Assembly (NCBI GenBank): GCA_051294905.1
Contig: CM119371.1
Span: 13,518,001-13,582,000 of the forward strand
DNA: 64,000 bases
DNA from: Botryllus schlosseri
Taxonomy: Eukaryota
Direction of reading: 5' to 3'
Under the pieces are notes generated by a model, which worked only from the letters and a program-made list of their open reading frames with translations, was not told where the DNA came from and ran no database searches. The translations under genes were made by a program, and so were the position numbers. Position 1 is the first letter of the stretch. Each line of letters starts with the position of its first letter. Below are positions 5,051 through 64,000 of the stretch, one piece after another.

Positions 5051-5945
5051 CAGAGGTGGTCAAAGTAGTCAAGAAAGCTACTCAAGTAGAAGTAGAAGTA
5101 GCGACGCAAAAATCTACTCAAGTACAAGTAGAAGTACTTCTTACACAAGCAACCTAAAACTACTTGAAGAAGAAGTAGAATTTGCTGGCTTTAAATCTAC
5201 TCAAGTAAGTAAGTAGTTTTGAAAACGGTGATAATACGTTTGCATGGACTTTCGAAAGCTGCAAATTGAGCTATGAGGAGGGTGCAGAGAGCTTCATGTA
5301 CAATGCATATTGATGCATCCCAGAAGGTATAAATTTCCGACAGCATGAGCATTCAACTGAATCATGAAATGTAAATGATTGTTTTGCTATAGAAATGAGA
5401 TACTAGCCTTCTGTTTACTAAAACATCCCGTTTTAGAAAATGTCATGGCATGCTCCCTCGCGCATATTACGGCCTTTAATTTAGTCGAAGAGCAATACGG
5501 AGAAGTTGTATGGATACGATGTTAACACTTTGCGCGATTCATATACGATGATAAAAAATATGGCATAATGTTAAAATGCCATAGGAAAATAGACGGCGAT
5601 GCTACACTTGCTTTTACACGTAAACATACATGTTCTCCAATGCAATAGGTATGATTTTCATCGGACCTATGACTTTCGTTGATAAATTGCCTTTTAGTGG
5701 CGATAGAAGCGTAACTCCGTGAAAACAGCCCGAGAATTCCCCAGTTTATCTTTCTAATTGGAGGGTTACACTACTTCTACTTGACAAACTGGAAATAGCG
5801 AAAAGTAAGTAAGTAGATCACTAAATATTATGAAGTAGAAGTAGAAGTAGCAAAGATTCCATCTACTTGAGTAAGTACCAGAAGTAGTGGAAAACTACTT
5901 GAGTACTTCAAAAAAGTAGAAGTACTTCGTTACTGACCACCTCTG
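5051..5945. mobile_element. hAT MITE with AGTAGAAGTA subterminal repeats
   Basis: TIRs CAGAGGTGGTCA / TGACCACCTCTG; perfect TSD TGAGTTTA. Confidence 0.9.
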
Positions 5946-6195
5946 TGAGTTTAGCGATATTCCAAGCAATTGTGAACCATGCGTCTGTAACATCGTCGAT
6001 ACGTATAACTTCAGAAGAAAGTGTCGTGGTATAGTTTGAAGCTTCTACGCTTCGTTACCAAAACTGTTATTCGACAAATATGTCAGATCGGTTTTCCATT
6101 TATATCTGAGAAAGCAAATTGATTGTTCCGCACAGAGTTACAAACCCATTTACCGCTGTTTAATTTCCCGATCCTTGTTCTTGTATCTGAGTTAA

Positions 6196-41508: not shown

Positions 41509-41675
41509 CGTTAGATGATTAAATTCCGAAACATGATGATATATGAAAATTCTACGCCTCATCACTAATTAATTAATATAAAATGCGATTTTGAGCGCAG
41601 ACAGATCGCGGTATCAATTGCCGAGGTCTCCGCATTTCACGACCTAATATGAACGCGCACTACAACTGAATGGGG

Positions 41676-41951
41676 GTGGCGAGATAGCGCAGTGGTATAA
41701 TCCGCGGCTGCAACACCAATGGGTGCGGGTTCGAGTCCGACCGAGGTGCACTTCCGAATTCCGATACCTAAGTGTTGGAGGTTCACCTAGGTTCCTCCTC
41801 GCCACCTCATCCGCGTCAGCGGTGTCTTACAAAAGCCTAGAGGTCGGCCGTGCTATAAGTCGGCAGTTACGGAAACTGAGAAGAATATATTGGCCTGGTG
41901 TAAATGACCATAGTAGTCGACAAACACCATGAATACCCCTAAACAAACAAC
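41676..41951 (+). mobile_element. full-length tRNA-derived SINE
   Basis: A-box TAGCGCAGTGG, B-box GGTTCGAGTCC, AAAC tail, TSD CTGAATGGGG/CTGAATAGGG. Other copies at ~22145 and ~57230. Confidence 0.85.
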
Positions 41952-44198
41952 CTGAATAGGGCTTCATTCGAATACCTGCAAATTTACTTTGCATGTCGAG
42001 TATAAGGATAATTTAATCAGCACTAAAACGCTAACGGACTAGCCGCAGGCGCACAATTCTCGGCGTTATAACTAAACAAAGTTTTCGCTGCAGGTACGCG
42101 ATTCCTAACTCGCAGTTACGGTTTCTACAGTTTCCACATTTTACGACGTATTTTCATTAGACGCATACAAGCGATTCCCAAGGTCGGGGCTATGGAAACA
42201 AATCAAGCATGAGTACGTGATTCTAAGGTCGTACCATCTCCAACCCCTGAGGCTATTACGTTCATCGCTCACCGCCAGACTATCGCCGTGGGTGTTTTAT
42301 GTTCATCGCTCACCGCTAGACTATTGCCGTTTATATTTATGAGCAAATTTCGAGAACTATGATGTCTACGCAAGACTATATTCGCAAGATATTCTATTAT
42401 GTGTATTTAGTGCTGTGTATTTTCATAATAAATCGCTTCCGAGAAATAAAAACACGACGTTTTTTGTAAGATGAATATCAATTTTAATGAAACAATAAAA
42501 AAGTAAAAAAGCGCGAAAAAATAATTTGTAAAGTAGATAGAAAATTACTTATTCATGACATAATAATAATTCTACTTGTACACATTTTCCACATTTTATA
42601 CACTTTTAGTAGTACCCAACAGTCTCAGTTGTGAATAAAATTCGGAATATAAACTAATTGAATAATTCACGAAGTCCTGATACGCTATATCGGAGTTTAA
42701 AATATTACTCATCCACATGAGTCGAGATGTTAATTAACTCATGTTTTCAATACAACTGAGGTCCTATTCCATTATTCCATGCAACACTATGTTGGCAACA
42801 GGTCTGATTTGAACACACTAATTTCCCGAATTAACTTATCGCCCACCACGGACACTCAATGAAGAACACCCTGGAGCATTCTCATAAATGCTATTCAATT
42901 CTTGACATATAATATACTGAGCATATAATAAGCTGACAAAACTTATACTTGAGTACTCCGAAATGTGCAAGTACTTTACCTTTACACGACGTTTTTTTGT
43001 AAAATGAATACTAATTTTATTGAAAAGTAAAAAAACGCAAAAAACAATTTGTAAAGTAAATAGAGAAACTACTTATTCATGACATAATAAAAATTTTACT
43101 TGTATACTTTTCACATTTTATAACACTTTTAGTAGTACTTAACAGTTTCAGCTTTAAATAAAATTCGGAATATAAACTAATCGGAAAATTCGGTAATCAA
43201 TTCCGCGTAGGATGCATACAAACGAGGAAAGTTACATCAACGAGTGTTAACTATGTGTATTATGTAGCTTGTAATTCATGCAAGTAAGTCGGACAAATTC
43301 GTCGCATGAACATAACGACATGAAAATTTTGTCGAGTAGATCTTTTTTCGGTATACTAAATTTGATATTGTTCCATACCGATTTGGAAGAGAGCACACTT
43401 AATTTCGTAATGTATCTAGATAACTACTTTTATTAAACTAATCGAAACATTCATGAAGTTCCGATACACTATATTTGAGCTTTTAAAAATTATTCATCAC
43501 AATGAGTAGAGATGTAGTTAAGTAAATCATGTTTTCGATTTTAATCATTACCTCACTTCCAAAAACCAACAAAATAGATTACTTTTACTAGTACTTGAAA
43601 GTTTAATTTTTAGATAAAATTCGGAATATAAACTATTTGAAAAGTTCACGAAGTCCTGATAGGCTATATTTTAGTGTAAAAAATTATTCATCTTCATGAT
43701 TCGAGATGTTAAGTAACTCATGTTTTCAACATGAGGTAAGCGCGAAGTACGCAAAATTCGATAACATACAAATACCAAAAATTGCGCTATCCTTCAGAGT
43801 TGATAATTTTAATTCTTGTAACAAAGATTTCTGTGCACAATTTATGTTTATCGTAAGTCCTGCACGTTCATGATTTCATCCGAGTTTGAGTTTCAGAAAA
43901 TATTATACCGACATCGCGACATCTTTCAAAAACAAAACCACGGTCACTGCTTGAGAGACCTATCAATGTGATCACAATAATTTAGTTACTTCCACAGAAG
44001 AGTAGATATGTATTTGACTTACGTTCCACAAAGCTAACGCGAAAACAATTTACTTTACTAACTAGAAGTGGTGAGTTATCGAATGATTTCTCCTTACATC
44101 AAAACAACTAGAATGTGGAACTATATTAAGAAAACGTTCCTAACCCTTTGTACACCGCTGATAAATCGCACAAGCTACGAGTTTCGAGAATCGAGATA

Positions 44199-45610
44199 TA
44201 CATAGTCAATTTTAATAATAGAATTAGCATGCTAAACATTTAATTCTCACATTGAAAGTTGATACGCAGTGGTAGGACATAATAACAATGCACCATACCA
44301 AATTTCATCACACATTTCATGATGTAACACTTTTAAAACTAACGCATTTCTATACCAACTTTTGCGCAAATCTGTTTTTCGGTAGCGCAGCACGTACCTA
44401 TACATAGTAAGCTTTTATAACGGTATTACCATGCTAATAATCAAATCCCCACCCTGAAACTTGGTACGTAGTTGTAGGACAATATGACAATGCACCATAC
44501 CAAATTTCGTCAAACATTTTATGATGGAGCAACTATAAAATTAACGCAGTTCCATACCAATTTTGCCTTAATCTGTTTTTCGCTAGCGTGTACCTATACA
44601 TAGTCAGCTTTAATAACGGAATTACCATCCTAATATGTGACTCCTCACCTTGAAACTTGGTACGTAGTTGTAGGACATTGCGCTTATGCAGCATACCAAA
44701 TTTCGTCACACATTTCATAATGAAACAACTTTAAAACTAACGCAGTTCTATACCAACTTTTGCGTAAATCTGTTTTTCGGTAGCGTGTACCTATACATAG
44801 TCAGTTTTAATAACGGAATAACCATGCTAATATGTGACTCCTCACCTTGGAACTTGCTACGTAGTTGTGGGACATTGCGATTATGCAGCATACCAAATTT
44901 CGTCACACATTTCATGATGGAACAGCTTTAAAACTAACGCAGTTCTATACCAACTTTTGCGTAAATCTGTTTTCGGTAGCGTGGCACGTACCTATACATA
45001 GTAAGCTTTAATAACGGAATTACCATGCTAAGAATCAAATCCCCACCCTGAAACTTGGTACGCAGTTGTAGGACATTATGAAAATACACCATACCGAATT
45101 TCGTCAGACATTTCATGATGTAACACCTTTAAAACCAACGCAGTTCTCTACCGACTTTTGGCTGAATCTGTTTTTCCGTAGCGCAGCACGTACCTATACA
45201 TAGTCAACTTTAATAACGGAATTACCATGTTAATAATCGACTCCCCGCCTTGATACACGGTACGCAGTTGTAAGACATTATGACAATGCACCATGTCAAA
45301 TTTTGTTACCCATTTCATGATTGAACAACTTTAAAACTAACGCAGTTCTATATACCGACTTTTTCGTAAATCTCTTTTGCGGGAGCGTAGCACGTACCTA
45401 TGCATAGTCAACTTTAATAACAGAATTACCATGCTAAACATTGAATGCGCAACTGTGTAGGACATCATGACAATGGACCAAATCAAATTTCATCACACAT
45501 TTCATGATGGAACACCTTCAAAACTAACGCAGTTCTATACCGACTTCGCGTGAATCTGTTTTGCGGGAGCGTAACACGAACCTATGCGTAGTCAATTTTA
45601 ATGACGGGAT
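44199..45610. repeat. tandem array, ~7 units of ~200 bp
   Basis: TACATAGT anchor at 44199, 44401, 44597, 44794, 44995, 45197, 45401, 45585 (periods 184-204 bp). Most units contain the inverted pair GAAACTTGGTA...TACCAAATTTC. Confidence 0.92.
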
Positions 45611-47560
45611 TATTGATTTAATTAAGTTTCAACACCTTTACAATGATTCGTCTTGCTTCCTATAACATCCCACTCGAAGCCCTCGTTATGAGGCTGTGAT
45701 CTCGGTCTGAGCTATGTCTTGAAGCCCACCCGAATCTGCAAATTGTTTCGATTTATTCTGCCCGTTTTAATTTAAGATAAGGAAGCCCATTTCACTCAAT
45801 GTATCGATGCCTACGGTACTCTACAAAATTTTCTGATTAATTCTCCCCATATTAATTTATCACAAGATAGATGATTTGACTCCTAAAGTACGAAATACTT
45901 GTTTGCTTGAGCTAAGCCGCAGCGCTTGGAGTGGGATTTTACGAGGTATGTGGACTCATTTCGAAGGGTTCTATGCCATAGGAGCTTACTTTACGCTCAA
46001 ATTCGATTCCCACACATTCCATATAACTACTAACAGAACCATTGAGTACCAGCCTTGAAATTTTGTGTAGTACTAGATGGCATGTATACAATTTCATGCC
46101 ATCCGACAGTACGACGGAGACTATCCAAATATCGAAAGAAGTCCTCTATTCTTTTTTGAAATATTCAAGGTTTCATCAGGACTTCCCTTTATATAAACTC
46201 CAGCAGAATCACTAATAACCTCTCAAGTTTACTCAATTTACTCTAATTTAATACTCGAGTACTAAATCCCTATTCTCCGCAAGTATGATAGAGGCTATCG
46301 CTCGATACTCAACGATTCGTAATTTTGCTGGAATACAAGTACAATTAGGGATTTAAAAGTAACTAATATAGGTGGTTATGTTTGTAGATTATTTACACTA
46401 CTACATATCGGTTTTTCAGGAGAAACTACCTACTTTTAGGACTTTATATTTTAAAGTAGTTTGAGGTTACTTTTGTATCACCTTGACAAGTGCTATTATC
46501 AAAAACTGGTTTTACTAAACTCTTACACTTTCACTAAACTTCTACACTGAATCTTGTAAAGTAGATAGAAAAGGAAAATTATTAACACAAGGTAAGCGAG
46601 AAGCACGCAAATTTCGATTTCATACAAATACCATAAATTGCGCTAACTTTCAGAGTTGTTAAGTATAGAAGTACTCGTACTTCCTGAGAATACCCAAGTA
46701 GGTTTTTTGCCTACATGCACCAAATACTCTCAAGTCCTTATGATATTGGAGTACATCAACTTCGTGATAGCTACAGTATTAAACAGAAATAGACCTAGAG
46801 TACTAACGTTTTACTTACTCGGAAATGACTACTTCTACCTTATTCCTCGCTCGGAGCGAAATTTCATGTGGTTTTGGATAATATCCAAGAAGTAGGCTCA
46901 CTTTGAAGCGTACTTCGTAAAACTCAAATATTGCGCAGTGAGAGTTCGCAAATTCTCGAAGTATTTTTGTTATTTTTATTGCGATAAGTCATTCTGCAGC
47001 GCGAAAATGCGTAGTAGGATATAGATGAAACTAGCACCACTCATCAAGACCACTGAAAACAGTACATTTCAACATTTAGTAGCAGTAAATTTCTAGTAAA
47101 GTACAAGAAGTGATGATTTCCGAGTGAGTTAAAAAGTAAGTATTGAAGGTATAGTTTACCCGAAAACCGAAGAAAACTCTGAAATAGAAGTAGCAGTGTA
47201 AATAGTTAATCACTCGATAAAGTATAGTGCAAGCAGATAAAACCTATACTTGAGTACTAAAAATGCACGAGTACTTCGCTATCGACTCCCTGCACGTAAA
47301 AAGTGACTACGGTTTAAGACTAGATTTACCGATACTCGGCGATTTCAGTTTTAGATAAAATTCGGAAACCAAGTAATTTCATAAACATAAGCTAATTAAA
47401 TGAATTTACGCGAATGTACTATGCCGCGCTGATAAGCTTATTTATAATATACTCATCATGTTACAGTGATTTTTCTAGCGGAGAAAATCTTTTTAATGTA
47501 GTAAGCAGGCCAAAATGAAGATATTTGTTGAGCTGAATAAACATAAATAATACTCTAGAC

Positions 47561-49541
47561 CAGTGGTTCTCAACCTTTTTCACCTCGCGGACCGGTAAAA
47601 TTTCGAAATATATTATGCGGACCGGTAGACCTTACAAAATTGAAATCAACCAAAAATGTAATGTAGGCAACCGTTTTTCCGCAAGTGTGGTACTAGAGCA
47701 CGGTGGCCAACCGTTTTGCTATTCACGGCCGCATTTTGATTACGTATTTGGCCTACGTCCGCATTCCAGGAAATAGTCATAAGGAACGCGAAATGCCCAT
47801 TTTAAACTGATCATGTCCATTTCTGGTGAACTCCGGACTAATCTACTTGTTCACATCGTCATACTATACGCACCGAAATCACGACATAGTGATAATGTTA
47901 AGAATAAGCACTGGGAACGGTCGTGGTCGCGCGAAGCGCGAAAACTTTTAACGATTCACGAATGAATTTCGTCATTAATATTCGTAGTTCCACATGTTAC
48001 TATCAAATATTTATCCTTTCTCAGCCAATGCGATCAGATTCATCGGTAGAGTGCATGGAGGGAGTGATTTTGAAAATTTAGGGCACAAATAAACGATGAT
48101 GCATCTTCGAGTGGGCCAATTGTTATTGTAGTAGGGTTGCCATATTTTGGAATTCTTAAAAGAGGACACTTTTCCAAAATTTTCAGGCTTACAATACCGG
48201 AAAAAAATTGGTTACTTTACTCCGAATTTGTAGTTGGTTGATAAAAAAAGGTCATCACTTCCATTCGACTTCAATTTCACCCACTTTTACTTGAGTTTAG
48301 TGGTCTTGACTAAAACGAAAAAGAGGTCGTCTTTCTGGCTCAACTCCCGAACGACCAGCCTTAGCGTTACTTGAGTACTTATTTCCTATATCTCAGTCCA
48401 ATTATCACATACATTTAATCAAAATTTTAAAAAAGATGGCATTTGGGCGTCCTCCGAGGACACTTTCAAAAAACTTCGAAAAGGAGGAGGACGTATGATA
48501 ACCCTATGTCACTTTGTTGCGTGTTGTTATTTCTTGACCTCCTATCAGAATTGTCGGTATAGTGGAAAGATATTGGAATCTTTCAAACGACCAGAAACAA
48601 ATTTCTTTCGTGAGGAGCGCACGATTCCAAGTTGGTATTTCTATATGGAGTGCATCATTTTCCTCCGCGGTTCGCATCTGTTTTGTGGTGCTCAGATTGC
48701 AAAGGGCGCTACAACTATATTAAAATCGAAAAAAGAATTCACATTGAATCGTGCGTAGCGTGAAGAAAATTTCAAGATTAAATAAAATATCTCAAAAAGG
48801 TAAGAGTTAATTCGTAATTTTAATTTTCTTGTCGACGGCCGCCAACACCTACTAATTGAATTGCGTGTCCACGGCCGCAAAAATTTATATTTCTACGGTC
48901 GCAGGTTACCCCCTCTGTACCAGAGAGCGACATTTTCAGGGTTTTTTTCGTAATTAAATATGTTTATGATGGTATTCATGTGATTTTACGGTGCTGAGTC
49001 GAGGTAAAATTGACTTGCCCAGATAAGCACAGGCTATAATTACGCGCCGAATGCCGTGGATTGTAACCGACCGCACCAACTCGAATAATATTATTCTCTT
49101 CGACAATATCCAGAGATGAAGCGTTTTGGAGTAGGACCAATCACCTTGTCCAGCTATGTTGTTCATCTCCCACTACTACCAGCCATAGCCTACTACGAGT
49201 GAAATGCGCCACACGAAACCACCCGGCAACGGCGATACCTGGCCTTCCACAAAATTATGGAATCGAAAACGAACGATTGTACGAATTATGTGGTTTAGCG
49301 AGTCACCGGAGACAGCTTGGACTTGGACAAGTCAAATCGATCATGTTTCCGGGCCTATAATCCTACCTCACGAAGTTCTGCATCAGTTCGAAATTTGACG
49401 TTTTATTATTTTACCAATGGACAAGCCTTCAACATCTTGCATCTTGAAATTAAGTTATAAAATCCTAATTTACCTTGCGGACCGGCAGAAATGTCGTCGC
49501 GGACCGGCACCGGTCCGCGGACCGGCGGTTGAGAACCACTG
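47561..49541. mobile_element. Charlie-type hAT MITE with nested elements
   Basis: TIRs CAGTGGTTCTCAACC / GGTTGAGAACCACTG; perfect TSD CTCTAGAC. Contains 47699-48917 (TSD TACTAGAG/TACCAGAG), which itself contains ~48132-48506. Confidence 0.88.
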
Positions 49542-50967
49542 CTCTAGACTACTTTATCGGTACTTTACAGTTTCAGTTTTAGATAACATTTTCCCCTTTC
49601 ACCTATTATTACAACTCCTCGCTATCTAAACATGTTTAGAATATATTATTTGCGATGATATGAACCCGTAAAGTACTCAACTAGCTTTTCGTAGAATATA
49701 GATGAAACTGACAACAGTCACCAAGACCACTGGCCCACTGAAAAAAGTACATTCAACATTTTAGTAGCAGTAAAGTCCAACTAAAGTACATGAAGTGATG
49801 ATTTCCGAGTGAGTTAAAAAGTAAGTATTGAAGGTATAGTTTGCTCGAATACCGATAAACTCTGAAATAGAAGTAGATGCAGTGTAAATAGTTAATCACT
49901 TCATTAAATATAGCGCAAGCAGGCCAAACCTATACTTGAGTACTCCGAAAATGTACAAGTACTTCGCTATGTACCCCCTCCACGTAAAAAGTGACTAGGT
50001 TTTAGACTACTTTATCGGTACTTGACAGTTTAAGTTTTAGATAAAATTTGGTAAGACTTTAAATTTTCTAGTAGTTTTAGCTTGCGTTTGTATCACCTTG
50101 AAAAGTAACATTATCAGACATGAAAATGATATTATCACCTAATACAGAAGTTAACACACGTCAATGTTCTTCGGAATTCACGAGAAATTGCTTACTAAGA
50201 GAAGTATATTCTTGTATACACAATAGTGGAGAGAATATTTAAAATGTAGTAAGCAGCCCGATGGGTATTCGTTGAGTTGTATAAGCATAAAAAACATTCC
50301 CGCGCGCTCCTAAATCTAACTCTTCCTAACCCTATACTATAGTAAGACGCGCGCGGGTGACGGGGCAATGGGCGTCCTAGAAGCGTGGCAATTAAGGCAA
50401 CATGGTGAAACTTGATTGGTGCGTACCAATTTGACCAACCCCTACTACTAATGTAGCCTACTAAACTAAAAGTTCACACGATTTCAAATTGGTATTTCTT
50501 CACTGCCATATTATTTTTCCGTGTGGGATGGTATTTGTCTTATGCGCCGTTGGACAATTAAACCTGTGTGTATTTTGTAGGACTATATATAACGAAGTTT
50601 TCGGTCATTATAAGGGAAGTGCCTTTAGGCCAAGGTTTTCTCGTCGCCGATCGTTCTGGCACACGTCTTAGAGTTGCATATTACATGGCCTAAAACTTTA
50701 TGCATTGGTGCGTCGTGACGCGGTAATGACCAACGCCGATATGCCCATTTCTTTAAATGTTGTGTATTTTTTCTTGGGGGGTAAGAGTACCCAATAGTAA
50801 AGATATTTGCCACGTTGAAATCGCGCACAGCGCGAATTTTTTTCAGAAAGTTCCACAAATTGCCAAAAAATACTCTATAATTTATGCTAATTCACCAAAT
50901 AATTTTGGGCCCCTTCGAGCTCGCCCCCCCTAATTGGGGGGTTTGGGGCGCGGTAGTTACGGCCCTG

Positions 50968-51350
50968 ATTCTGCCATCGAAAAAAAACTTGATTGATAAT
51001 CCTATTTGCGTGGAAAATTACCAGACCGATAGATTTCAACCGATGTGGTTCATTCCTTCATTTATGTACTTTGGAGTATAGTTTAATCAAAATCTGACCA
51101 CCCAATTTGTGCCAACAGAACGAGTTTGTGTATAATCTACAATAGTACATTTTTCGCAAACCGTCTTTTCGCCATGATAGATTGTATTTTCATGGCGCTG
51201 ATGCCATATTTGGTGATACGATTGTTGATATAGAATATTCTTTTCAATTCTCTAATACTTGCCGACGATTTCCGACGAGTGTTAACCGAAAATATTTTGG
51301 TTTGTTTCAGTATGAATATATTATATTATATACCGAAATTCTTGACGTCT
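50968..51350 (+). mobile_element. old Penelope-like element, piece 3: GIY-YIG C-terminal half and pLTR
   Basis: NLIDNPICVENYQTDRF...LCQQNEFVYNLQ is homologous to 52840-53030. The pLTR at ~51200-51350 is homologous to 53060-53230, with a mutated hammerhead core at 51261-51300. Confidence 0.75.
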
Positions 51351-51413
51351 AAGAGTCTTTGGCAATTTATCTTCTACCTCCAGGTTATTATTTACTCATG
51401 GTAAAAGCTGATC

Positions 51414-51426
51414 ATGGCTGAAGGGG
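51414..51426 (+). CDS. NLR gene, putative start exon (MAEG)
   Basis: ATG GCT GAA GGG G|GTAAGG phase-1 donor; upstream acceptor cttctacctccag ending at 51383; 64-bp intron to the next exon. Confidence 0.5.
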
Positions 51427-51490
51427 GTAAGGATGTCGCTTATTTGGTGTTTTTACACTTAATTTATACGAGGTAAAAATTTCATTCCAG

Positions 51491-51589
51491 CCTCTTGTAT
51501 TCAAGGCACGGGTCGCGATGTCAACGTGACAGTGAGAGATCAAGCAACAATACAAGTGACTTTTAATCCAAGTACGTCAGATCCCAAAG
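51491..51589 (+). CDS. NLR gene, putative N-terminal exon (beta-prone motif)
   Basis: ttcattccag| 99 bp |GTGAGT, open in phase 1-1: (A)SCIQGTGRDVNVTVRDQATIQVTFNPSTSDPK. Confidence 0.55.
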
Positions 51590-51780
51590 GTGAGTTGGGT
51601 TAATGACTGGCGGCTCGTGTCAATAACGGGTAGTGGGGCAAGGGATCCACCCGATGTTTGTTGTCTAAATGTGGTCACCATGGTGTATTCCGACGTGGAA
51701 ATGTGACTTCGTGGTGGTCATACACAGTTTATATGGGGTATAGACACTGGGCATGGTTACCTAGGCTAATGTATTTGAAA

Positions 51781-52077
51781 TTATTCTGAAGAAAATATAG
51801 TACAGTATAGTCCACCTGCATACTTTAACGTTTGTATGAGTAGGCCAATTGTGCGCGTGTGGCGTGATTTAATAGTTGCAAAATGTTTAATGACGAGTTC
51901 ATTGAAATCCGGAATATCCAGAATAACGACGTTGTGAATCGAGACCCCAGCTAAAGCATCGAGTCTATCTTTACACATCCAAATTCTAAGAAAAGTCTCG
52001 ATGTGTTTCAATGTGCTGAAACCACGCTCAGGCTTCATGTTGTGATATGCGTAACCGCTATTCCGGAATAACTTCAA
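51781..52077 (-). mobile_element. hAT (Tip100/ZMYM1-like) transposase C-terminal remnant
   Basis: PERGFSTLKHIETFLRIWMCKDRLDALAGVSIH...VIKHFATIKSR resembles the hATC dimerisation domain. Confidence 0.7.
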
Positions 52078-52690
52078 TATGAGCCTGTAGAATCTATAAA
52101 TAGAAATGACAAGGCTGGACGTTATTTTTTCATTAAATATTTCTTACTAAATTTTGGTACCAGATATTAAGATCATACCCTATGGCAGGGATTCTCAACT
52201 TCCCATGCACCGCGGGCCGCATTTGAGCAATAATAGATGCAACGGGCCGCAGATCATTTTTATCACGCATTTGTATTATTTGGTTCCCCGTCGGCTTGTT
52301 TCACCTGTCCTATCCTGATGTCTAATTCATTCTTATGAATTTAAAAAAAATAAGTGGACATACTTGGACAGTGTTCGTAATTCTGCATTTGTAATCACGT
52401 TCTAGAGCGAATTATACCAAACAACAAGTGTCTGTTCCTTCACATGCAATCTATAAAACAGAGTACAATTGTTGACTTAGTGAGAGTTTTGAGTCTGCAT
52501 TTTGTTTACAAGCACTTTAGAATCCGGTTGCAGCTCCGTTGTAGCAGCTCTCATGTAATCTTCCAAATGTATGTCAGTTATACGGGTGCGCTCTTTTGAT
52601 TTTATCATTCCCATGGCAGAGAAAGAGGCTTCACATAAATAAGTGGATCCGAAACAACAGAGAATCTTATGAGCACACAAAATCAATGCT

Positions 52691-53230
52691 ATTAAATAGT
52701 ATATTCATATTGAAATGAACCCGAATATTTTCGGCTGACACTCGCCCAGATTTATCAGAACACGTGCGTAACGCGATGTGAAAAGCTCACCCTTAACTCA
52801 TCCACTTAAGATTGATGCTGATCGATCAAAGGCCATTAATTCTGCCATCGGCAAACATCTGTTGGATAATACGATTTGTGCGAATAATTATCGAGACGAC
52901 GGATTTCGAATCGTAGGTCGAGGCCGTTCACAATTCCATTTGTGTGCCTTGGAATCAACTTTTATCAAAATACACCAACCAAAACTCTGTCAACAAAAGG
53001 AGTTAGTGTATCACCTAAAAATAGTACATTGAACGCTCTCTCATTCGAAATTTCATGTCGGTGACGTCATATTTTGTGATACGATTGTTGATATACAATG
53101 TTCTTTCCAATTCTCTACTAGTTGCTGACGATTACCCCTGACGAGTGTCAGCCGAAAATATTCGGGTTCATTTCAATATGAATATACTATTTAATTGCAT
53201 ATTGAAGTTCTGTACCTCCAAGAAGCTCTT
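52691..53230 (+). mobile_element. 5'-truncated Penelope-like retroelement with inverted pLTR
   Basis: 13-bp TSD CAAAATCAATGCT (52678-52690 / 53231-53243). ORF 52778-53032 SAIGKHLLDN.ICANNY...HLCALESTFIKIHQPKLCQQKE matches a PLE GIY-YIG C-terminus. Perfect 54-bp inverted repeat 52691-52744 / 53142-53195. Confidence 0.88.
53124..53167 (+). ncRNA. minimal type I hammerhead ribozyme in Penelope pLTR
   Basis: Helix I ACCC/GGGT, core CTGACGA, G-C-closed helix II, GAA, palindromic helix III AATATT, cleavage triplet UUC (C53163). Upstream GCTGAC is complementary to loop-II GTCAGC. Confidence 0.7.
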
Positions 53231-56200
53231 CAAAATCAATGCTGGGTATAAATTCTTCGGTACGTAGGATATCCAGAATGTTTGAATGCTCTCCTCCTTT
53301 TGTCTTCCTTTGAGGATATTGTTGTGCTGCAGTTCGATCAGTTGTTCCTCAAATTCAGCCCTTTTTACTCCAAATTTTGCTGCCTCAACTGACAGTGAAG
53401 TTGTCTGAACGTTGCAAGAAAACGGATTTTCTGTGAATGCCAGCACGGCTCCCAAGTACTTAATGTCCGCGAATCGAGATGAAAATTCCGCCATCAATTC
53501 CCTGACGTAGGTGCAATAAGGGGTTGGTGAGTAAAATCCTGGTTGTTGCGACACTTGGGTCTCTAGAACAGGAAAATGCGTGAAATCACCGACCTCAAGT
53601 TGCTGCGCAAACAGGCTCAGTTTTGTCTCGAATGCAGCCACGTCATTCATCATCGTTGGCAAAATCTTTTTTTTCTCCTTGAAGGGTAAGATTTAGTGAA
53701 TTCAAGTGGCGCGTTATATCAGTAAGAAAAGCTGCGTTCTGTACGAATATTTCATCTTCCAGTGACGCAAGTAAATCATGTCGATTTTTCTCTTTCAAAA
53801 ATATGCGGACTGCCGGAAGCAGCTCCATGAATCGAGCGAGAACATTTCCGCGACTAAGCCACCTCACTTCCGCATGCATTGTCAAGTCGGTATATGCACT
53901 TTTATATCCTTCCACAAGAGAACGGAACTCTCTGTGTTTCAATGCGTGAGCAAGTATAAAATTGACTGTTTTCGTCTCGGAATCCATTGTTACTTTCAGC
54001 TCTCCACCTCTCAGCTTGCTGCACAATTGCTCTTGGTGCAAAATGCAGTGATATGAGAAGAAGTCTGGCATTTCGTTAATTTTTCTGAGTAGACCAATCA
54101 ACCCTTTTCCCTTGCCTACCATGGACGGAGCACCGTCAGTAGTGACAGAAACCAGCTTTTTCAAGTTGATGTTTTTTCCTGGTCCTCGAAAGAAGCTCAT
54201 CATTGCGGCACAAATGTCCTCGCCCCGCGTTTGCCCTTTCATCGGTATCAAAGCCAGCATTTCTTCTGCAAATGTGTCCACTTTGAGAAAACGCACCCAG
54301 ATAATTAGCTGCGCAATGTCTGTGGAGTCGGTCGATTCATCCAATGCTAGACTAAAGTACTCAGCTCTCTCAACGTGATTAAGCAACTGCGATAAAAGAT
54401 CGTCTGAGATTGCTTCTACTCGTCTACTCACGGTTGAATCAGACAACTGCAACTTCGAGATTTGCCTGGTGATGCTGTCCTTGTTTTTAAATTCCGAAAA
54501 CAGAGAATTCGCATAGTCTGCCAGTGTTTTCTTGAAGAACTCACCTTCTGTAGCAGGCTTCTTGGCTTTGGCGATGTTCCAAGCAATTGTGAACGATGAC
54601 TCTGTAACGTTGTCTGCACTATTGAGAATGCCGCGAAATACGGACCGCTGGGCTTGAAAACAAGCTAGCCACGCCTGGATTTTGTTTTTCCTAAGATCTC
54701 TATCAGGTGGATGAGTAGTTTTAAACTCCGGGTGAAGCCTTTCGTGGTGCCATCTTAAATTATCTTGCTTCATCACGCTCACTGCTCTCTGACAAATCAG
54801 GCACATAGGTTTGCCATTTATCTCGGTAAAAGCGAATTCATTTTTCCACGCAGAGTTGAAAACCCTGTGTTCGTCGTCCACCTTCCTTTTCTTTGTCGCC
54901 ATATGTTCCAGTCGGTCGCGGCGAGTAGGCTACATCAGTCGAATGTGAATCAGCCCGGAATTAGCGTACAAAGTCGGAAATACGGCATTGTCCGATAATA
55001 ATCGGAACATCGCAATAGGTCATTGTTATGATCATTGTGTTACGACGCTCTGATTGTTCTGAACAACGCATGTTTAAGACGTTGACGACGATTTTGCGAT
55101 AGGATCCAGTGCCCTGAGCTGATTTAAATTTTTATTTTTGTGATCAGTGCGACGATAGCTTTCTGTCAAGGGATGGGGGGGAGATGAGCGAGCTAAGTAA
55201 CTGAATTAAGGTGCTAGGCTGCCCTCGAAATAGAAAGTCAGTCATACACCCATAACTTTGAAACTAAGGAAGCGAATCTTTCCAAAATTTCGAGTCCGGG
55301 TGCTTTGGTGGACATCCCATTATTTCAATGATAGCATAATTTTCTCTTTAGTAGATGATCCTGATACAGGAAAACTTTTCAGAATTCATTCAGTACCGGT
55401 AATTATTCACCTACTTCACAATTTTCAAAATCTGGACACTTTAATTCATGCCTCATACCTCGATTAGTGGGTATATCGAATAGAGATGGACGAGTACGAC
55501 TACGAAAGTCGCATATTAACACGTAGTAGCACCGAAATAATAATTTCGGTTTTAATCAATATGAGAGTTTCGGTTTTAATCAATAAGCCGCGGGCCACAG
55601 AAAATGCCTCCGCGGGTTGAGAACCCCTGCCCTATGGTGTCGCCAGAAGCATTACGAGATATTATTCCATTCGCTATAGCTATTAACTATTTTTGTGGAA
55701 ATTGAATTGAAGAAAAGTCATTTATTTTCTGTTTATCACTAGTCTAGAGTAAACATATGCAGAGGACAGATGACGGTTGCACGATAATTGAGTTAAATTT
55801 GAAGTAAAACTGGGATAAGGGGGTCCATGACTGTCTAAAAGAGGTCACCGAAAACAAAAGGTTGAGAAGTACAGCACCAGTGGTTTCTACTTCGGAAAAA
55901 GATGTGTTGGAATATAAATAACGATTTACAGGAAAGTAAAAAGCACGTGTTCTAGGCTGGGTTTTGCCTAAAGAGAGGAAACTGTGAAGTAAAAGTGCGA
56001 GCAGTCTATAATCAAAGCGGCTCAAGGAAATAGTGCAAGAAGGCAAAACCGACACAGATAAATATATCAACATAAATTCAAGTACACCCCTAGCTTTTGT
56101 CTTTGCGACGCATTCGCAAGAGCTTGTTTGACTTACGCCGCACCACTAATTGTAGCTTTCACAATAACTATATCTCGCACCATCATTATTACGTACGACT

Positions 56201-57092
56201 GGATCGAAGGCGGGTATCAGCGAAATGAGAACGTCTGAGCCCACGATACGCATAATTTCCAATAACCATAATTTCGTAATAACGGTCTGCCCGGCAAGTT
56301 GTATGAAGATAGTAGTAAATACCATAGTGTCCTACAATGGTGCGGACAGGACACAAGCAAATCGCACGGCTCACTGCGATTGGTTTACATCACACTTTCC
56401 GTTTGGTTAAAGGCAATTTTGCGGTAATATTGTACAGGTTGGGCGAGGTAGGCTACTGATTGCTAAAATATAAATTTTATTCTTCTCGTGGTCCTGGAAC
56501 CCTACAAAATCAGCCTCGAATGTTGCATTGTAACGGAGTAAGATATTGTGAAGCAACAAGTCCGTCTGTAATAATATGGCGCAGCTCAGGAGCAAGTGCG
56601 CACGAGGGTGAGAGTGTGAATGCTCATGCTCAATCGTTCGCGCAATAATGTCCAATACGCTTGCGGTTCACGCTGCAACTCACCTGCTTACAGACGGCAT
56701 TGTTGCGTCGCAATACCAAACTACTTCGTCTCCACAAAAGAGACGAGGTATGAGTCATAACTTATGACTGTATACTTTCAAACTCGATTGCTGGGTGAAA
56801 AAAGGTTCAAAGTTACATTGTCATTTTCATCGTAATGGCTGTCTATTCAGGGCTTTTCAGTTTCGACTGAAAATGAAATCTGCTAATGAAAGAGACTGCT
56901 AGGAATTTACTACGATATGTCGGTATGTTTATCAACAATACACCTCGTTTCAGTTGTATATGTTCGCACTATCAAGCATATAGCACTACCACGCAATGTG
57001 CCGCGGCCGTTATATCATTTTCAAGGGTGCCACAAGCTGAAAAAGTTTGAGAAAAACCCCGTAGTGAGAAAAACGTAAGGTTAATTTCACAG

Positions 57093-57170
57093 ATCATGGG
57101 AATCATTATCCAAAACTCGTCGATCCAAAAGATAATCCATGGAGCGAGAAATTTCAGGAGTGGGTGACAG
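57093..57170 (+). CDS. NLR gene, linker exon
   Basis: ttaatttcacag| 78 bp |GTGAGT, open in phase 1-1: (D)HGNHYPKLVDPKDNPWSEKFQEWVT. Splices in frame to the NACHT exon. Confidence 0.7.
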
Positions 57171-57229
57171 GTGAGTATTGAAGCATTATGCATATATTAC
57201 GCATATATTAATGTCGTTTTCAACGACGC

Positions 57230-57500
57230 GACGCCAAGTGGTAAAGCGTAAAGGTATGATCAACAGCCGGAAAATCAACTGGTTACGGGTTCGAGTGCGA
57301 AGTTGACCCCAGAATTCCTATCACAGTTTGGGAGGTTTATCTTGGCTCTTTCTCGTCATCTTATCTGTGTCAGGGGTTTCGTGAAAATTTCCGAAATTTT
57401 GCCGTGCTACAAGTCGGCGTGCACGAAATCATAATATAGTATTATCAGCCTGGTGTGAATGCCTATAGTTGAAAAACACCATGAATACCACAAACAAAAA
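57230..57500 (+). mobile_element. degenerate SINE (family of 41676-41951), intronic
   Basis: B-box-like GGTTCGAGTGC; body GCCGTGCTACAAGTCGGC; 3' end CACCATGAATACCACAAACAAAAAC. Confidence 0.65.
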
Positions 57501-57558
57501 CAATATTGTAAGCCCCATATGTTATATACAATAACTGTAAATCTTTGCACACTTTTAG

Positions 57559-58959
57559 GACGTCACCTTAATCAATTCCTCGCGAAGATCAGACATTTTT
57601 CGTGGAAGAACGCCCAATACGGCCTAATGGAGTCTTATAAAGATTATTTGGAACCGGAAGGAAAGGAATGTCATCCACAATTAAAGACCGGATTTCAGTT
57701 ATTTAAAGGAGATTATTTACCACAGGATGGATTCAGTGCACACGGAAACCCGAAAGAGGGATATTATATAGATTTCGAAAAGGTTTTAGAAAACATCCAG
57801 GACGAACAAAATATGTCGTCTGCAATCATTGGACAGCCAGGGAGCGGTAAAACAGTCATAATGAAACGTCTTGCACAGAGATTGATGATCGAAAATGATT
57901 GTTGCGAACCGAAACCGATGAAAACTGGCGGGAAGGGATTAAAACAAAATTGTGGGCAGTATGATTTTGTTCTTTATATGAATTTTAGAGATATACAAGA
58001 TTCCGATGATGTAACTTTATATGAAGTTATATTTAGTCCCCTCGTTACCAAGGTGAATCAGAAAGAAGCTCAGTATGGTTTGAGAGCAATAATGAGTGGC
58101 AAAATCAAGGTAATCATGTTTTTCGACGGATTAGATCAAGCTACGTGGCTCCCGAGATTTGACCGAACTGTTGGCCATTGGGAAAAGGCAAACACTGCCA
58201 CGATATTTGGTAATATATTGAAAGGTGATCTTTTACAAAACGTTCCTATCGTCTTATCATCGAGAGAACATTCCGTTGCTCTCTTACCAGAATTATTGAG
58301 ACCATCATTCGTTGCAGCCTTAGTGGGATTCACCGAAGAAGATGCTAAAAATCTGTATTGCCAATTAATGGGCAATGATTCCGGTTTGGATTGGGATGTC
58401 ATGAAGATGTCCAATCCTGGCATGCATTACATGTGTCTAACACCTCTGTTCTTGATATTCTACACGATAGCAAGGAAGTTAGATCCGTCTGAACCTCCGA
58501 CCTGCGCATCTGGAATCATGGTGCTGGTCTTTAGGCAACTTATGGAATGTGAAAATACTCCAAATCTTGAACGTGTTAACGTCACGCAAATAATAGACAA
58601 ATTGAAAAAAATGGCTTACCATGGCACCCGGGAGAAACGAGTGATATTTGAGGAAAAAGATCTAACAGAATATCAACTCGAATATAAAGACATCAGTGGC
58701 ATGGTTATAAAAGCCCCAGGAGAAGCAATTCATGCTCATAAAATTTTCGAAGGAATGTGCAGATACTTTTTTAGTCACCAAACACTTCAAGAGACATTAG
58801 CAGCTCTATTTATTGCACAGATGAATTTGACCGATTTCAAACGACTCGTGAATTCCAAGTTTACGGAACCCCATTGGGCAGTTGTTCGGAATTTCACAAG
58901 CGGTATTTTGATGAACGAAAGGGTAAAAAGTAAACTCACCGATGACATCCTCAAATCAG
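57559..58959 (+). CDS. NLR-family NACHT NTPase exon (NBD-HD1-WHD-HD2)
   Basis: Acceptor cacttttag|57559 and donor CAG|GTCAGT; 1401 bp, phase 1-1. Walker A GQPGSGKT, Walker B VIMFFDGLDQ, sensor-1 IVLSSR, MCLTPLFL, WHD FFSHQTLQETLAALF. Confidence 0.93.
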
Positions 58960-61900
58960 GTCAGTAAACAATTTCCTCCAACACGAAAGTAATGTGCAAT
59001 CAGTTGCACTTTGATGCCCACAATTGTTAACACTTTAAATATATCTATATAGAGGCCTATACCATAGATATACCTACTTGAAATACAAAAAGTGATTTAC
59101 TGCGTGGCAGTTCCAATCAACGAGTTATAATTTCTAGTCTTACACGTCCGACTAACAGCAAAGATCTCGATAATAACCGCTGTCGTGAAATCAGATCGGT
59201 TAGTAGAGTTTTTTAGAATGTAGATCATTTCCTATTTAAATATCAGTCGCAAATGCATAATCCAAACGAAAACGAGATAGTAACGATCTAACGAAGATCG
59301 TATCTAGGTAATATTTTCAATTTGATTTAGCAATTGTTTTTGGCTAAATTTCGGCGCTGAATCAAAAAATGATACAACTTGGTCTTCACGTCAGGTTTTC
59401 GCCTTATAATCAGGCCGTGTTATTTTTTGTCATTTTGGGAATCAAATGGCAAAACTGATTAAAATAGAAAATTTAAAATGTCAACAATAAGGCTTTCTGA
59501 AAATATCGGTTTTCGTGAAGGTTTAAGAGAAAAATATCAACAAGTATTGAAATGAGTATGCATAAAGCGACCAAACAAGCGTGTAACACTAAATTCGTAA
59601 ATTGAAGTCCGTAAACCCTTCGGAAGGCCGTAGTCTACCGTCCGAGGGATCTATGTTATGCGAATGAAACTTTCAGGGTTGAGGCAGAAAAGTCGAGTAC
59701 TGAAATTTGGATCTGCGACATAGCCTAATTGGATTGATCAACCCGAGTAATAAATTATATCCAGCAATTAGGGATATAGCTCAATGACTATGCATATTCC
59801 TGTTGTCACCGCTCGTGAATTTTATTACCTCATAATAGCGCGACCCATGTTGCATTCCATTTATTTTCAACTTGTTAATGAAAATATCAGCATATAGTGC
59901 AATCAGTGATAGACATCGTCTCGTTGGACAAAAGGGATATAGTTTCATCAATGAACAATTGAACATACACACTTACACCACGCAAAATACCCCAGTCGCC
60001 AAGAAGTAACCCTAATCAATGCGTACCATACACATGCCTGAAAACATTCAGTTATTTACTGTTTTTTTTGTACGCCCGCTGTAATTTTTTCGTATTTTAT
60101 TGCAAAAATAAATCACTCATGATTTCTAACCATTGGTTAGCGAGTAGCGTTTTACATCGTTAATTCGAGTAAACAAATATGAAATCCTGTCGACGCTAAA
60201 ACTGCCCAAAATAAAATCTGAAAAATGCCAAAAATGAGCTTTTGGTTGCATAGTGAAGGCCGCTATCCAAACGTGTTATAGACCCTTTTGACTTGTTGTC
60301 GTGAGTATTGTGACCTATGTGGGTGCCGGTAATTTTGTAATCATAGTGAATCGACTATTGAGAATAGATATTGCAGAAGCAGTCAGTTTTGTACAGGGTA
60401 AATTTGGTATCTAACATCGTTTTTAATTTGGAATTAAATTTTGCTGTTCGAGGGCAGATTGTGGATACTGCATGTTTTTTGACATCTCTTTGATGAAGCG
60501 ATTTAAATGGAGTCTATAAATCCGAATTCATGGCGACGCCAAATTGCCAGAAATAAATTATGAAAATTGCCAAAAATAAGCTTGTAATTCAAATAAATGA
60601 TCACATTTAAAATATGTTGTTTTTGTAAGAAAATTTCAATAACTACATGCAATCGAAAAGTAACGCAATAATTTTCAAATAAACATTAATACTGAACTAT
60701 TTGGTTGTATTAATATTTTTGAAATCAAGAGCTAGTTTTTGGGAACTGATTATTGCGACGGACTACCATTAACTTCACTTTCTCAATGCTCATCGTTGAC
60801 TACTCCAATATTTCCCGGGAAATTATTGGCTATTTCAAAATGTATTTAGATGCTTATGTTGCAGACGAATTCGTTTTAGCTTCAAATGGATTCTAAGCAA
60901 TGTAAATTATCTGTCCGTGTATTCTCAAGTAATCTCCACATTACTTCTAAATAATTTACAGACAAATTTTTTTCAAGTCCAAGATTGACGTTGACCACTG
61001 ATTCAATCATTTTTGCTGATTTTCCGAATTTGTGGACCATCAAATGTACCAGCTTAAAATTTTTGTATTAAACAGGTCGGGAAAAAACTTTCTCTGTGTC
61101 AACAAAAGACAGATGTTAGATATTGTGATAGACAGTTACAGGTAATGGCGGAGGCCAGTTCCTCAGCACCCAGTGCTTCTTTCGATCTCGTGTCCCACAT
61201 ACACATATAGCAGTGGTACATGGGTTGAGTATAAGGGTCACATGTGCATCGGATTTTGAAGTCGACATATATTATCGAATTGTGCTTCTGATATTATAAC
61301 AACTCAATTTTCACGAATTTCTTCACGAAGACTACCTGAGTGTACTGTACAATTTCTACTCTACAGTAGAAATGGCATAGTAGTAGGAAGGTATCGTTTG
61401 GCGCCCGCCAAAGCGACACCTTGTGATTCAGTGGTGCGAAAACTATGATGTCTATGCAAGGCTATATTCTCCGGATAATATTATTATGTGTATTTAGGAC
61501 TTTATATTTTGGCGGATAATATGAGCTCTCAGATAACACGTTTTTGTGAATGTGAATTTGAATTCATTTGATTTATGTGCGTATTTATATCAGCAATAGC
61601 ACTTTGCTAACGGAAACCAGTTATTGTCATGATAACCAAAAACTATGATGTCTATGCAAGGCTATATTCGCCAGATATTATTATTATGTGTATTTAGTAC
61701 TTTGTCTTTTCACGGATATTGTGAACAACCCTGAACTAGGTGTGGTTTTATGATGATATATCAAAATTCTACACATCATCACTAATTAATTATTAAAAAA
61801 CGCGATTTTGAGCGCTGCGACTTGATAATAATAATCCCTGCGCTTCTGATGCATGATTTTTTGTGATAATGACCTTGGTAACATTCAGATTCTGTAACGA

Positions 61901-62151
61901 TTGTTTGGATATACATTATAGCAATGCCCCACTAAACTATGGGCGGTTATATTACTCAATTGCTCAGAGATAACTCAGCCGTCCATATTTTCAAACTTGA
62001 TTTTATGTATACAAGTTACGGTCTCTGCAGGCTCCACATTTTACGACTTATTTTCATTAGACGCAGGCAAGCGATTCTCAAGTTCGGAGCTATACGGAAA
62101 CAAATCACTGGCATGTGCGCGTTCCGAAGTCGTAATTACGATTCAGCCCTA

Positions 62152-63350
62152 TTCATGTCACTAGAATAAGGGTAATTAAACCGACAGTGAAACGCCGCCG
62201 GCGTCTTATAACGTAATAATGTAAGCTGCGTCGGGTGCTGCTATAATGTTAGGAGCGAATATAGTAGAAAGTCCACGTCTGGACACCTGTAAGCAGGTGC
62301 GCATACTACCGTAGTAAAACGCATAACAGATTTCACGCGAAAGTCGATATTGCTTTGTGATGATTTTGATGTTGTTAGAGTATGTATGTTCACGAAGACT
62401 GCGATATCGCACGGATAAATACATCATAACTAATTATTCACTTGAATGCGACTTGATAATAAGAGAGAGAGAGATATGATATTCTTTCTCGCCTGCACCA
62501 TCGAGATGCTTTGGCGACTGAGTTGCGATACGGCCCCATGAGGTCATCTAGTCTGCGCCCCCGTTTTTTTTCTCCTCCACGCTATCCGTGATTGCTGAGC
62601 GCCTAGCAGGATAACTGCAGGATAACTCGAGTCTTTGGTATGACCCGGCCGGGGATCGAACCCACGACCTACCGCTCGAGAAGCCGGACGCACAACCATT
62701 ACACTATCTCGCTCGGTCCCTAGAATAATATAAAATGCGATTTTGAGTGCAGACAGATCGCGGTTTCGATTTCCGAGGTCTCCACATTTTCAGCCTTATT
62801 ATCAGCTCGCAGCACAACCGCTACCTGTATAATGTTTGCATGTCGAGTATAAGGGTATTTAACTCAGCACTAAAATGCCAACGGACTAGCCGCAGGGGCC
62901 CGGTTCTCGTCGCTATAATTGAACGAACACCTTCGCCGCAGGTACGCGATCCCCGACGTTATAATGATAGGGACAAATTAGCCGCATGAAAGCGAGTCTA
63001 ATGAATATAACGACTGACAACAAGTTAGTTGAAAAGTAAAACTAATCGTGACCTATGCAAGACGGCGTGAAACAGCGCTTTCGCGCGATTCTTGTAGTGA
63101 CCACATTTCATACGATTCAGTCCTTTTCATGTCACTAGAATAAGGGTAATTAAACCGACAGTGAAACGCCGCCGGCGTCTTATAACGTAATAATGTAAGC
63201 TGCGTCGGGTGCTGCTATAATGTTAGGAGCGAATATAGTAGAAAGTCCACGTCTGGACACCTGTAAGCAGGTGCGCATACTACCGTAGTAAAACGCATAA
63301 CAGAATTCATGCAAAAGTCGATATTGCTTTGTGATGATTTTGATGTTGTT
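62152..63350 (+). repeat. near-identical ~225-bp direct repeat (62152-62376 and 63126-63350)
   Basis: TTCATGTCACTAGAATAAGGG...GATGATTTTGATGTTGTT appears twice with only a few mismatches. Confidence 0.9.
62480..62720 (-). mobile_element. tRNA-derived SINE
   Basis: Minus strand has A-box TAGTGTAATGG and B-box GGTTCGATCC, then CCGGCCGGGTCATACCAAAGAC. Confidence 0.75.
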
Positions 63351-64000
63351 CGATACCGATTGGGAAGATAGGACTCCTAATTTCCTAACTAACTACATAA
63401 TCTCTCGTTACGTAGCCAGAAGCATAACGGAATATACGCAAAATCGGTATTGCTCTGCGATAATTTTGACCACTATGTTTTGATAATAACTTGCTTCCGA
63501 GAAATAAATAACATTCAATATACGTCAGATGATACTTTTCCTTGATATTCTATTATGTGTATTTAGGGATAATGCGACATCACTATGTTGGCGACAGGCC
63601 TGATTTGAACACACTAATTTTGCGAATTAAACTTATCGCCCAACACGGACACTCAATGAAGAGCACCCTGGAGACTCACATAAATGCTCCACAATTCTTG
63701 ACATATAATATACTGAGCATATAATAAGCTGACAAAACCTATACTTGAGTACTCCGAAATGTACAAGTACTTTACCTTTACACGACGTTTTTGTAAAATG
63801 AATACTAATTTTAATGAAAAATAAAAATTATGTACTCAAGTAGGTTTTTGTCTACACGCACCAACTACTCAAGTGTTTATGACACAGGAATGATTCATTA
63901 AGTATAGCGCAAGCCGGCCAAACCTATATTTGAGTACTCCAAAATATACAAGTACTTCGCCATGTACTCCCTCAACGTAAAAAGTGACTAGGTTGTAGAC

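Follow-up and report, generated by a model that had tools for sequence, protein, structure and literature searches.

A NACHT gene with a short predicted N-terminus

The window, by which we mean the whole 64-kb stretch of DNA that was analysed, carries on its plus strand four segments with AG/GT ends (exons 1 to 4, Table 1), which are predicted to splice with every junction in phase 1 and whose joined 1591 nt contain no stop, as the initial annotation had proposed. Pfam recognises in exon 4 a NACHT domain (E 1.9e-17) and a winged helix (E 6.9e-5), and both Walker A (GQPGSGKT) and Walker B (IMFFDGLDQ) are intact, with the P-loop at residue 155 of the reconstructed protein; a NACHT with Walker A/B plus a winged helix is the combination by which an animal NLR is recognised. 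An HD2/LRR exon, which many relatives possess, was not found in 58960-64000, the window ending 5 kb past exon 4, and candidate exon 5, read in the phase dictated by exon 4, reaches a stop after 13 codons. The best explanation is that exons 1-4 make up the 5' portion of a gene of the ascidian NLR type, no LRR part of which was found in the window.

Table 1. Features of the NACHT locus, in positions of the window.
Feature	Position	Strand	Description
Exon 1	51384-51426	+	30 nt leader, ATG 51414, 13 coding nt
Intron 1	51427-51490	+	64 nt, GT..AG, phase 1
Exon 2	51491-51589	+	99 nt, symmetric phase 1, encodes SCIQGTGRDVNVTVRDQATIQVTFNPSTSDPK
Target duplication, 8 bp	52178-52185, 55631-55638		flanks the hAT/Spin-like transposon
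hAT/Spin-like DNA transposon	52186-55630	-	inserted in intron 2; short terminal inverted repeats
59-nt inverted-repeat element	52686-53200		nested inside the hAT/Spin-like transposon
Transposase	53643-54929, 53168-53692		of the hAT/Spin-like element, in two frames
Alternative ATG exon of the initial annotation	56648-56747	+	overlaps one arm of a 35-nt inverted repeat, 56537-56722
Exon 3	57093-57170	+	78 nt, symmetric phase 1; Pro/Asp/Lys-rich linker, Trp-containing stretch at its end
Dispersed repeat	57245-57501		overlapped by the 5' end of the long ORF, 57459-57558
Exon 4	57559-58959	+	1401 nt; NACHT and winged helix
Candidate exon 5	61076-61141	+	66 nt, AG..GT

Splice sites were ranked with an ad hoc consensus score over the plus-strand GT (n=3666) and AG (n=3358) sites and the minus-strand GT sites (n=3742). 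Only two plus-strand GT sites reach the top score, namely those that serve exons 2 and 3 as donors; the minus strand likewise holds 2 top-scoring GT sites of its 3742, so that chance alone can produce such donors too. Within 40000-57500, no open phase-1/phase-1 candidate is better than exon 2, and among the 34 strong donors of the window it is one of only two that go with a strong acceptor and an open symmetric frame. The donor of exon 1 is moderate (68 of the 3666 GT sites score as well) and the acceptor of exon 3 mediocre (1034 of the 3358 AG sites score as well). The acceptor immediately 5' of 51384 is strong, its score being equalled by only 5 of 3358 AG sites, and exon 1 may start there by cis- or trans-splicing; since an in-frame TAA (51402-51404) stands 5' of the ATG, an upstream coding exon joined via this acceptor cannot continue in the frame of exon 1. 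Exons 2 and 3 stand 5.5 kb apart, and one transposon insertion makes up 3.4 kb of this gap.

With the splicing predicted here, about 64 residues without a death fold precede the NACHT exon. Most animal NLRs carry a folded death domain at their N-terminal end. In agreement with the earlier observation that no such exon was apparent, none of the 105 plus-strand frames of at least 36 aa in 44000-57560 matched CARD, Death, DED, PYD, TIR or RHIM in Pfam. The sole open frame of at least 210 nt ending at a phase-1 donor in 40000-57540 falls within an inverted-repeat element and has no Pfam match, and tblastn of 163 relatives, Death-bearing ones included, against the window returned, besides the NACHT gene, only transposase and one weak match. 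The N-terminal CARD, PYD, DED or Death that marks the NLRC, NLRP and NLRD types was not found at this locus.

The exon 2 peptide and its counterparts

Exon 2 encodes about 25 proline-free, beta-prone residues followed by a P/S/D/K tail, on a symmetric exon of its own, much as had been described. The core of the motif holds four charged residues (R-D twice) and few Asn. Its proposed identity as a RHIM was not supported: the peptide lacks the V/I-Q-V/I-G tetrad that forms the RHIM core (PMC12119088), the nearest stretches being IQGT and IQVT, and it matched 0 Pfam families, RHIM included, and 0 PDB sequences, all at E<=10. HMMs of short motifs are described as insensitive in the available text of PMC12261475. 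What stands of the initial reading is an invertebrate (styelid-ascidian-like) NACHT gene with a beta-prone motif exon and no death fold, while the RHIM identity is not supported.

On a composition score, which is ad hoc and was devised after the sequences had been seen, exon 2 comes 84th among the 1775 frames scored in the window (top 5%), the 83 higher frames being mostly non-coding. Searches with the peptide gave nothing at E<0.37 against the N-termini of 48 relatives and nothing at E<=10 in the protein database (a weak search, 4 candidates); the best lead in ESM Atlas reached just 0.78, and a four-copy complex prediction of the peptide scored 0.03, which bears neither way.

The closest named relatives of the NACHT are Styela clava NLRs. 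It is 31-33% identical to that of the S. clava NLRC3-like or uncharacterised NACHT-LRR proteins P0005-P0017, and in a quick tree of 35 rows picked out of 164 sequences the window gene and this group share a 17-row clade (SH-aLRT 97); P0018, a Death/TIR-bearing member, falls in the sister group of the window gene's branch. As in the window gene, the N-termini of P0005-P0017 have no Pfam domains, but they are longer (100-490 aa), contain several repeated units and are not significantly similar to exon 2. The four closest relatives, P0001-P0004, come without N-termini and are thus unable to confirm exon 2. Among 30 relatives chosen from the 163 for possessing an N-terminus, 26 had no N-terminal Pfam domain at E<=0.001, 2 had Death, 2 had TIR and 0 had RHIM; as judged by such matches, the N-terminal slot of the clade is mostly non-globular, and V/I/N/Q-rich stretches open the N-termini of many relatives. 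In the available text of PMC11508797, ascidian NLRs are said to have no N-terminal domain.

The named S. clava NLRs start with V/I/N/Q/H-rich stretches and tandem 22-26-residue units (up to three copies in P0008), and a VQVG tetrad occurs in three S. clava NLR N-termini; in 10 relatives whose stretches look RHIM-like, Pfam searched to E<=1 recognised no RHIM. On the same ad hoc composition score, 46 of 64 relatives' N-termini, a redundant set, outscore a same-length NACHT control. AlphaFold leaves the N-terminus of P0020 unfolded (pLDDT ~25) and places six short strands over the repeat units of P0011 at low confidence (pLDDT 34-46), and ESM Atlas gave no usable match for the Styela repeat region. 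A by-eye alignment of exon 2 with the Styela 'NVEI' unit is unproven and was rejected, since the profiles of the two unit types scored rank exon 2 only 191 and 721 of 2224. A first metagenome scan came back empty, and a later one turned up 3 loci matching at 29-30% across the P-loop region.

If the predicted splicing holds, exon 2 is a short motif N-terminal of NACHT/NB-ARC with no globular effector, and its length and position agree with receptor-side amyloid signalling motifs, given as 21-40 aa within N-termini of 23-134 aa in the part of PMC12261475 available. In Branchiostoma floridae, the RHIM-NACHT-repeat protein BF82280 likewise joins an animal NACHT to a short putative amyloid motif in the death-fold slot, a prediction there too according to the accessible text (PMC4262963), which treats further RHIM proteins of invertebrates as well; the motif of BF82280, however, is a profile-detected RHIM (Kajava et al. 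2014, PMC4262963), unlike exon 2. The motifs of fungal NLRs (NWD2/HET-S HRAM, PP, sigma and PUASM), as outlined in PMC9815663 and PMC7889193, resemble exon 2 in that a short N-terminus presents a beta-prone motif of ~25 residues before the NACHT; exon 2 differs in matching no Pfam motif model, in its animal host and in being an exon of its own, and neither the window nor the weak protein database search yielded a copy on the effector side. In bacteria, BASS motifs sit at the N-termini of NLRs that pair with BELL/CHAT/TIR effectors; going by the excerpts available of PMC7889193 and PMC12261475, they share motif length and position with exon 2. What defines a BASS pair is a neighbouring effector gene that carries the motif as well, whereas no second copy of the exon 2 motif, for example on an effector gene, was found within the 64-kb window.

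Possible roles of the motif exon

We tentatively favour the reading, plausible though short of probable, that exon 2 fills the effector slot with a real self-assembly tag other than a RHIM, as the signalling end of an ascidian NLR-type gene. It is established for NLRs that ligand sensing activates the NACHT and leads to oligomerisation. Ligand sensing would here switch on the NACHT, which would oligomerise, and within the NACHT ring multiple motif copies, tethered by a flexible Pro-rich stretch, would come to lie next to one another. On the model of the NWD2/HET-S and BASS systems, the clustered motifs might nucleate a beta-arch/cross-beta stack, and this stack might recruit and activate a separately encoded effector (a kinase or a pore former) with a like motif.

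An alternative that we regard as possible but rather doubtful is that the exon is real and functional without being amyloid, either as a short linear docking motif contributing a beta strand to some folded partner or as the leader of a sensor NLR that uses Death/TIR helper NLRs. The charged residues in the core and the failure against RHIM and every Pfam motif speak for this, and the Death/TIR members in the same clade (4 of 30), with P0018 in the sister group, could serve as helpers. However, the tandem duplicated similar units in the Styela N-termini suit stacking motifs better than single docking sites, and exon 2 occupies the position of known amyloid signalling motifs.

The RNA look-up covered 4 of 24 listed runs and was dominated by reads from the repeat at 52.7-53.2 kb. 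One contig of run X1 ceases to match 2 letters short of the acceptor of exon 4, where 22 letters of the contig remain; this break is consistent with splicing at 57559, X1 being only guessed to be RNA. Contigs of run X2, also only guessed to be RNA, include the intron sequence 57524-57558 and 59086-59283. The bulk RNA runs X7 (6% read) and X11 (13% read) had zero depth across 57648-59357 and gave no NACHT coverage, which favours a reading that we consider unlikely, namely that the exon is spliced but an inert, fast-evolving leader or linker, or that the NACHT gene is decaying or truncated in this copy. The searches that found no homologue of exon 2, the early stop in candidate exon 5 with no HD2/LRR exon found, and the transposon carried by intron 2 point the same way. 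Against decay, exon 4 is stop-free with intact Walker motifs, exons 2 and 3 keep near-perfect donors, and LRR exons may sit past the window end.

It is quite improbable that exons 1-2 are foreign to the gene and that the transcript begins elsewhere (e.g. at 56648) or uses a death-fold exon further upstream: neither 51426>51491 nor 51589>57093 was found among the 15 joints listed (137 further joints), exons 2 and 3 are far apart, the minus strand too has top-scoring donors, and death folds split over small exons would escape the size and Pfam screens, but a single transposon insertion accounts for most of the distance, exon 2 outranks every other candidate over 17 kb and pairs with an ATG exon lying 64 nt to its 5' side, and the tblastn search showed little besides the NACHT gene. 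The segment starting at 56648 is probably not exonic, given its weaker donor (114 of 3666 GT sites score as well) and its overlap with an inverted repeat.

Meaning for ascidian NLR immunity

In Basidiomycota, as far as the available text of PMC9815663 and PMC7889193 goes, dozens of motif NLRs per strain stand beside few and unlinked effectors. A similar organisation is conceivable for ascidian NLR immunity, though we hold it to be speculative: the death-fold adaptor would have been replaced by diversified non-RHIM amyloid motifs on shuffleable phase-1 exons, and many receptors would template few motif-bearing effectors. A literature search, which lay mostly outside subscription journals, found no description of such motifs in tunicate NLRs, and Daskalov and Saupe, in the accessible portion of PMC7889193, leave open whether the RHIM is the only animal signalling amyloid. 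Tunicates are reported to be without RHIMs and RIPK1 homologues in the available text of PMC4262963 and PMC12119088. With a defined peptide of 25 residues and the repeat units of Styela, both the animal-amyloid question and that of the ascidian N-terminus become testable, by means of synthetic peptides and seeding in yeast or Podospora. Were ascidian NLR immunity organised in the way just outlined, animals would possess a second signalling-amyloid family besides the RHIM, located in the vertebrates' sister group, for which RHIMs are reported absent.

Exon anatomy and the start of the gene

The initial annotation had spliced four plus-strand segments into one NLR. They were indeed found at the proposed coordinates, with canonical AG/GT ends, phase-1 joins and 530 codons free of stops, and the four-exon observation is real. 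On our own simple consensus score, the exon 2 and exon 3 donors were the sole two at the top among 3666 plus-strand GT sites, and the minus strand also had two equally top-scoring donors among 3742. Exon 2 was the best symmetric phase-1 candidate across 40000-57500, and of 34 strong donors across the window its donor was one of just 2 to combine a strong acceptor with an open frame, phase 1 at both ends; the exon 3 acceptor is ordinary (1034 of 3358 equal or better). Considering that the minus strand has two top donors as well, and that the exons were possibly picked on these same signals, the splice-signal evidence is good, not overwhelming.

A strong acceptor lies directly ahead of exon 1 and an in-frame TAA 12 nt upstream of the proposed ATG, which is the translation start if exon 1 is used. 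An out-of-frame upstream ORF overlapping this codon could damp translation. Most of the distance from exon 2 to exon 3 is taken up by a single hAT-type transposon. RNA and contig coverage is dominated by the very high-copy element nested in this transposon, which has a related copy just ahead of exon 1. The long ORF overlaps a dispersed repeat at its apparent 5' end.

Downstream, a search of the 5 kb remaining after exon 4 turned up no HD2 or LRR exon, and the frame of the one clean candidate exon closed after 13 codons. Just past it, a short frame starting MAEAS resembles the proposed start of the window gene and that of the relative P0083, probably by chance.

Positions of the exons and neighbouring features in the window
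Feature	Position	Strand	Remarks
Degenerate copy related to the hAT/Spin-like transposon	near 4472-5997		
Tandem array	44200-45620		units of roughly 200 nt, seen in sequence
2-kb element	47551-49551		ends resemble those of the intron 2 transposon; no transposase match; 127-codon frame, no Pfam match
Copy related to the high-copy element	50968-51354		end 30 nt ahead of exon 1
Exon 1	51384-51426	+	
Upstream ORF	51398-51421	+	7 codons
Proposed ATG	51414	+	
Exon 2	51491-51589	+	99 nt
hAT/Spin-like transposon	52186-55630	-	8-bp target duplication; transposase in two frames
Very high-copy element	52686-53200		59-nt inverted ends
Alternative ATG exon	56648		donor weaker; overlap with inverted repeat
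Exon 3	57093-57170	+	
Exon 4	57559-58959	+	NACHT exon
Candidate exon 5	61076-61141		
MAEAS frame	61146-61211	+	

The second exon and the search for a death fold

The peptide of exon 2 runs for about 25 residues free of proline, in which V/I/F alternate, before a P/S/D/K tail; the exon had been proposed as a RHIM/amyloid-like motif replacing the death fold. On a composition score made ad hoc after the sequences had been seen, it ranks 84 among 1775 frames of the window. The RHIM label failed every test run: exon 2 has no tetrad (consensus from the accessible text of PMC12119088), no Pfam family and no PDB match. No homologue of the exon was detectable among the N-termini of 48 relatives or in a weak protein database search, and against profiles of two Styela clava repeat units it ranked only 191 and 721 of 2224.

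The proposed lack of an apparent death-fold exon was borne out: none of 105 plus-strand frames of at least 36 codons in 44000-57560 matched death-fold, TIR or RHIM families, and tblastn of 163 relatives against the window returned, outside exon 4, only transposase and one weak match, in screens that could miss a death fold spread across a number of small exons or placed further upstream. Among open frames that run up to a phase-1 donor, the only long one sits within an inverted-repeat element. An absent death fold is typical of the NACHT clade of exon 4.

Possible role of exon 2

NACHT domains of NLRs oligomerise upon activation. In fungi and bacteria, effectors are templated by short N-terminal motifs on NLRs, according to the accessible parts of three papers (PMC7889193, PMC12261475, PMC9815663). 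By analogy, exon 2 might be the templating motif of the window gene, acting by beta-stacking, and the stacked motifs would recruit an unlinked effector; we favour this reading tentatively. The nearest working analogy is the NLR system of Basidiomycota, where, according to the available text, each strain has NLRs with such motifs in the dozens and few effectors, which are unlinked (PMC9815663). An amyloid role of exon 2 is a reasonable hypothesis.

A non-amyloid docking or helper-dependent role is somewhat less likely, an inert or decaying copy unlikely, and a wrong gene model more unlikely still.

The exon 4 product comprises NACHT and winged helix with intact Walker motifs. Bulk RNA from runs X7 (6% read) and X11 (13% read) had zero depth across 57648-59357. 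In one comparison of four runs, in which repeat reads dominate, contigs of X1 and X2 (both taken as RNA by guess) matched exon 4 at about 95-98%, those of X2 covering intron sequence too. One 203-nt X1 contig matched 57557-57737 with 22 letters left unmatched; on our reading of the record's orientation, the contig would be spliced at 57559 to an upstream exon with AG at its end, a description that suits exon 3 but also exon 2 and the 56648 exon. Neither of the two upstream introns had a joint among the 15 joints listed (137 further joints stand outside this list).

N-termini across the NACHT clade

The best matches to exon 4 were four unnamed proteins (41-51% identity), all lacking N-termini, followed by Styela clava NLRs (31-33%), and a quick tree placed the window protein and the Styela proteins in one 17-row group (SH-aLRT 97), which suggests a styelid or a related ascidian. 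In the accessible parts of the literature, ascidian NLRs are described as having no N-terminal domain (PMC11508797), a search for RIPK1 homologues found none among tunicates (PMC12119088), and one paper already predicts a RHIM-NACHT architecture in amphioxus and states that tunicates appear to lack RHIMs (PMC4262963). Whether RHIM is the sole animal signalling amyloid is listed as an open question (PMC7889193); the available portions of a 2026 review name, for animal immunity, only RHIM and cryptic RHIM (PMC13506858), and those of PMC12881547 and PMC8662601 add nothing on tunicate motifs.

Among 30 relatives picked for possessing an N-terminus, Pfam found Death in 2, TIR in 2, RHIM in 0 and no N-terminal domain in 26, two of which looked by eye Death-like (P0035) and kinase-like (P0083). 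Other architectures within this NACHT family (P0083, P0097, P0065, P0076) include this kinase-like N-terminus, BIR C-terminal to NACHT, and TIR after a short beta-prone stretch. VQVG is present at residues 39-42 of three near-identical Styela paralogues (P0005, P0007, P0014), a strict tetrad in tunicate NLR N-termini, the group being reported to lack RHIMs; the Pfam RHIM model gave no match to P0005 at E<=1. In P0063, P0024, P0020 and P0019, NACHT is preceded by long arrays whose short, beta-prone repeats resemble beta-solenoid rungs. AlphaFold gave no confident fold for the N-terminal regions modelled and left the P0020 array unfolded.

Results showed that Styela NLR N-termini, which do not align with exon 2, begin with tandem units of 22-26 residues and with stretches rich in V/I/N/Q/H, and that more distant unnamed relatives often have N-termini of 50-100 residues with one such stretch and then a Pro/Ser linker. 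On the ad hoc composition score, 46 of 64 N-termini (redundant rows) lay above the NACHT control. Independently of the Botryllus genome, then, a second species shows this kind of leader, non-globular and beta-prone, where the effector domain would sit.
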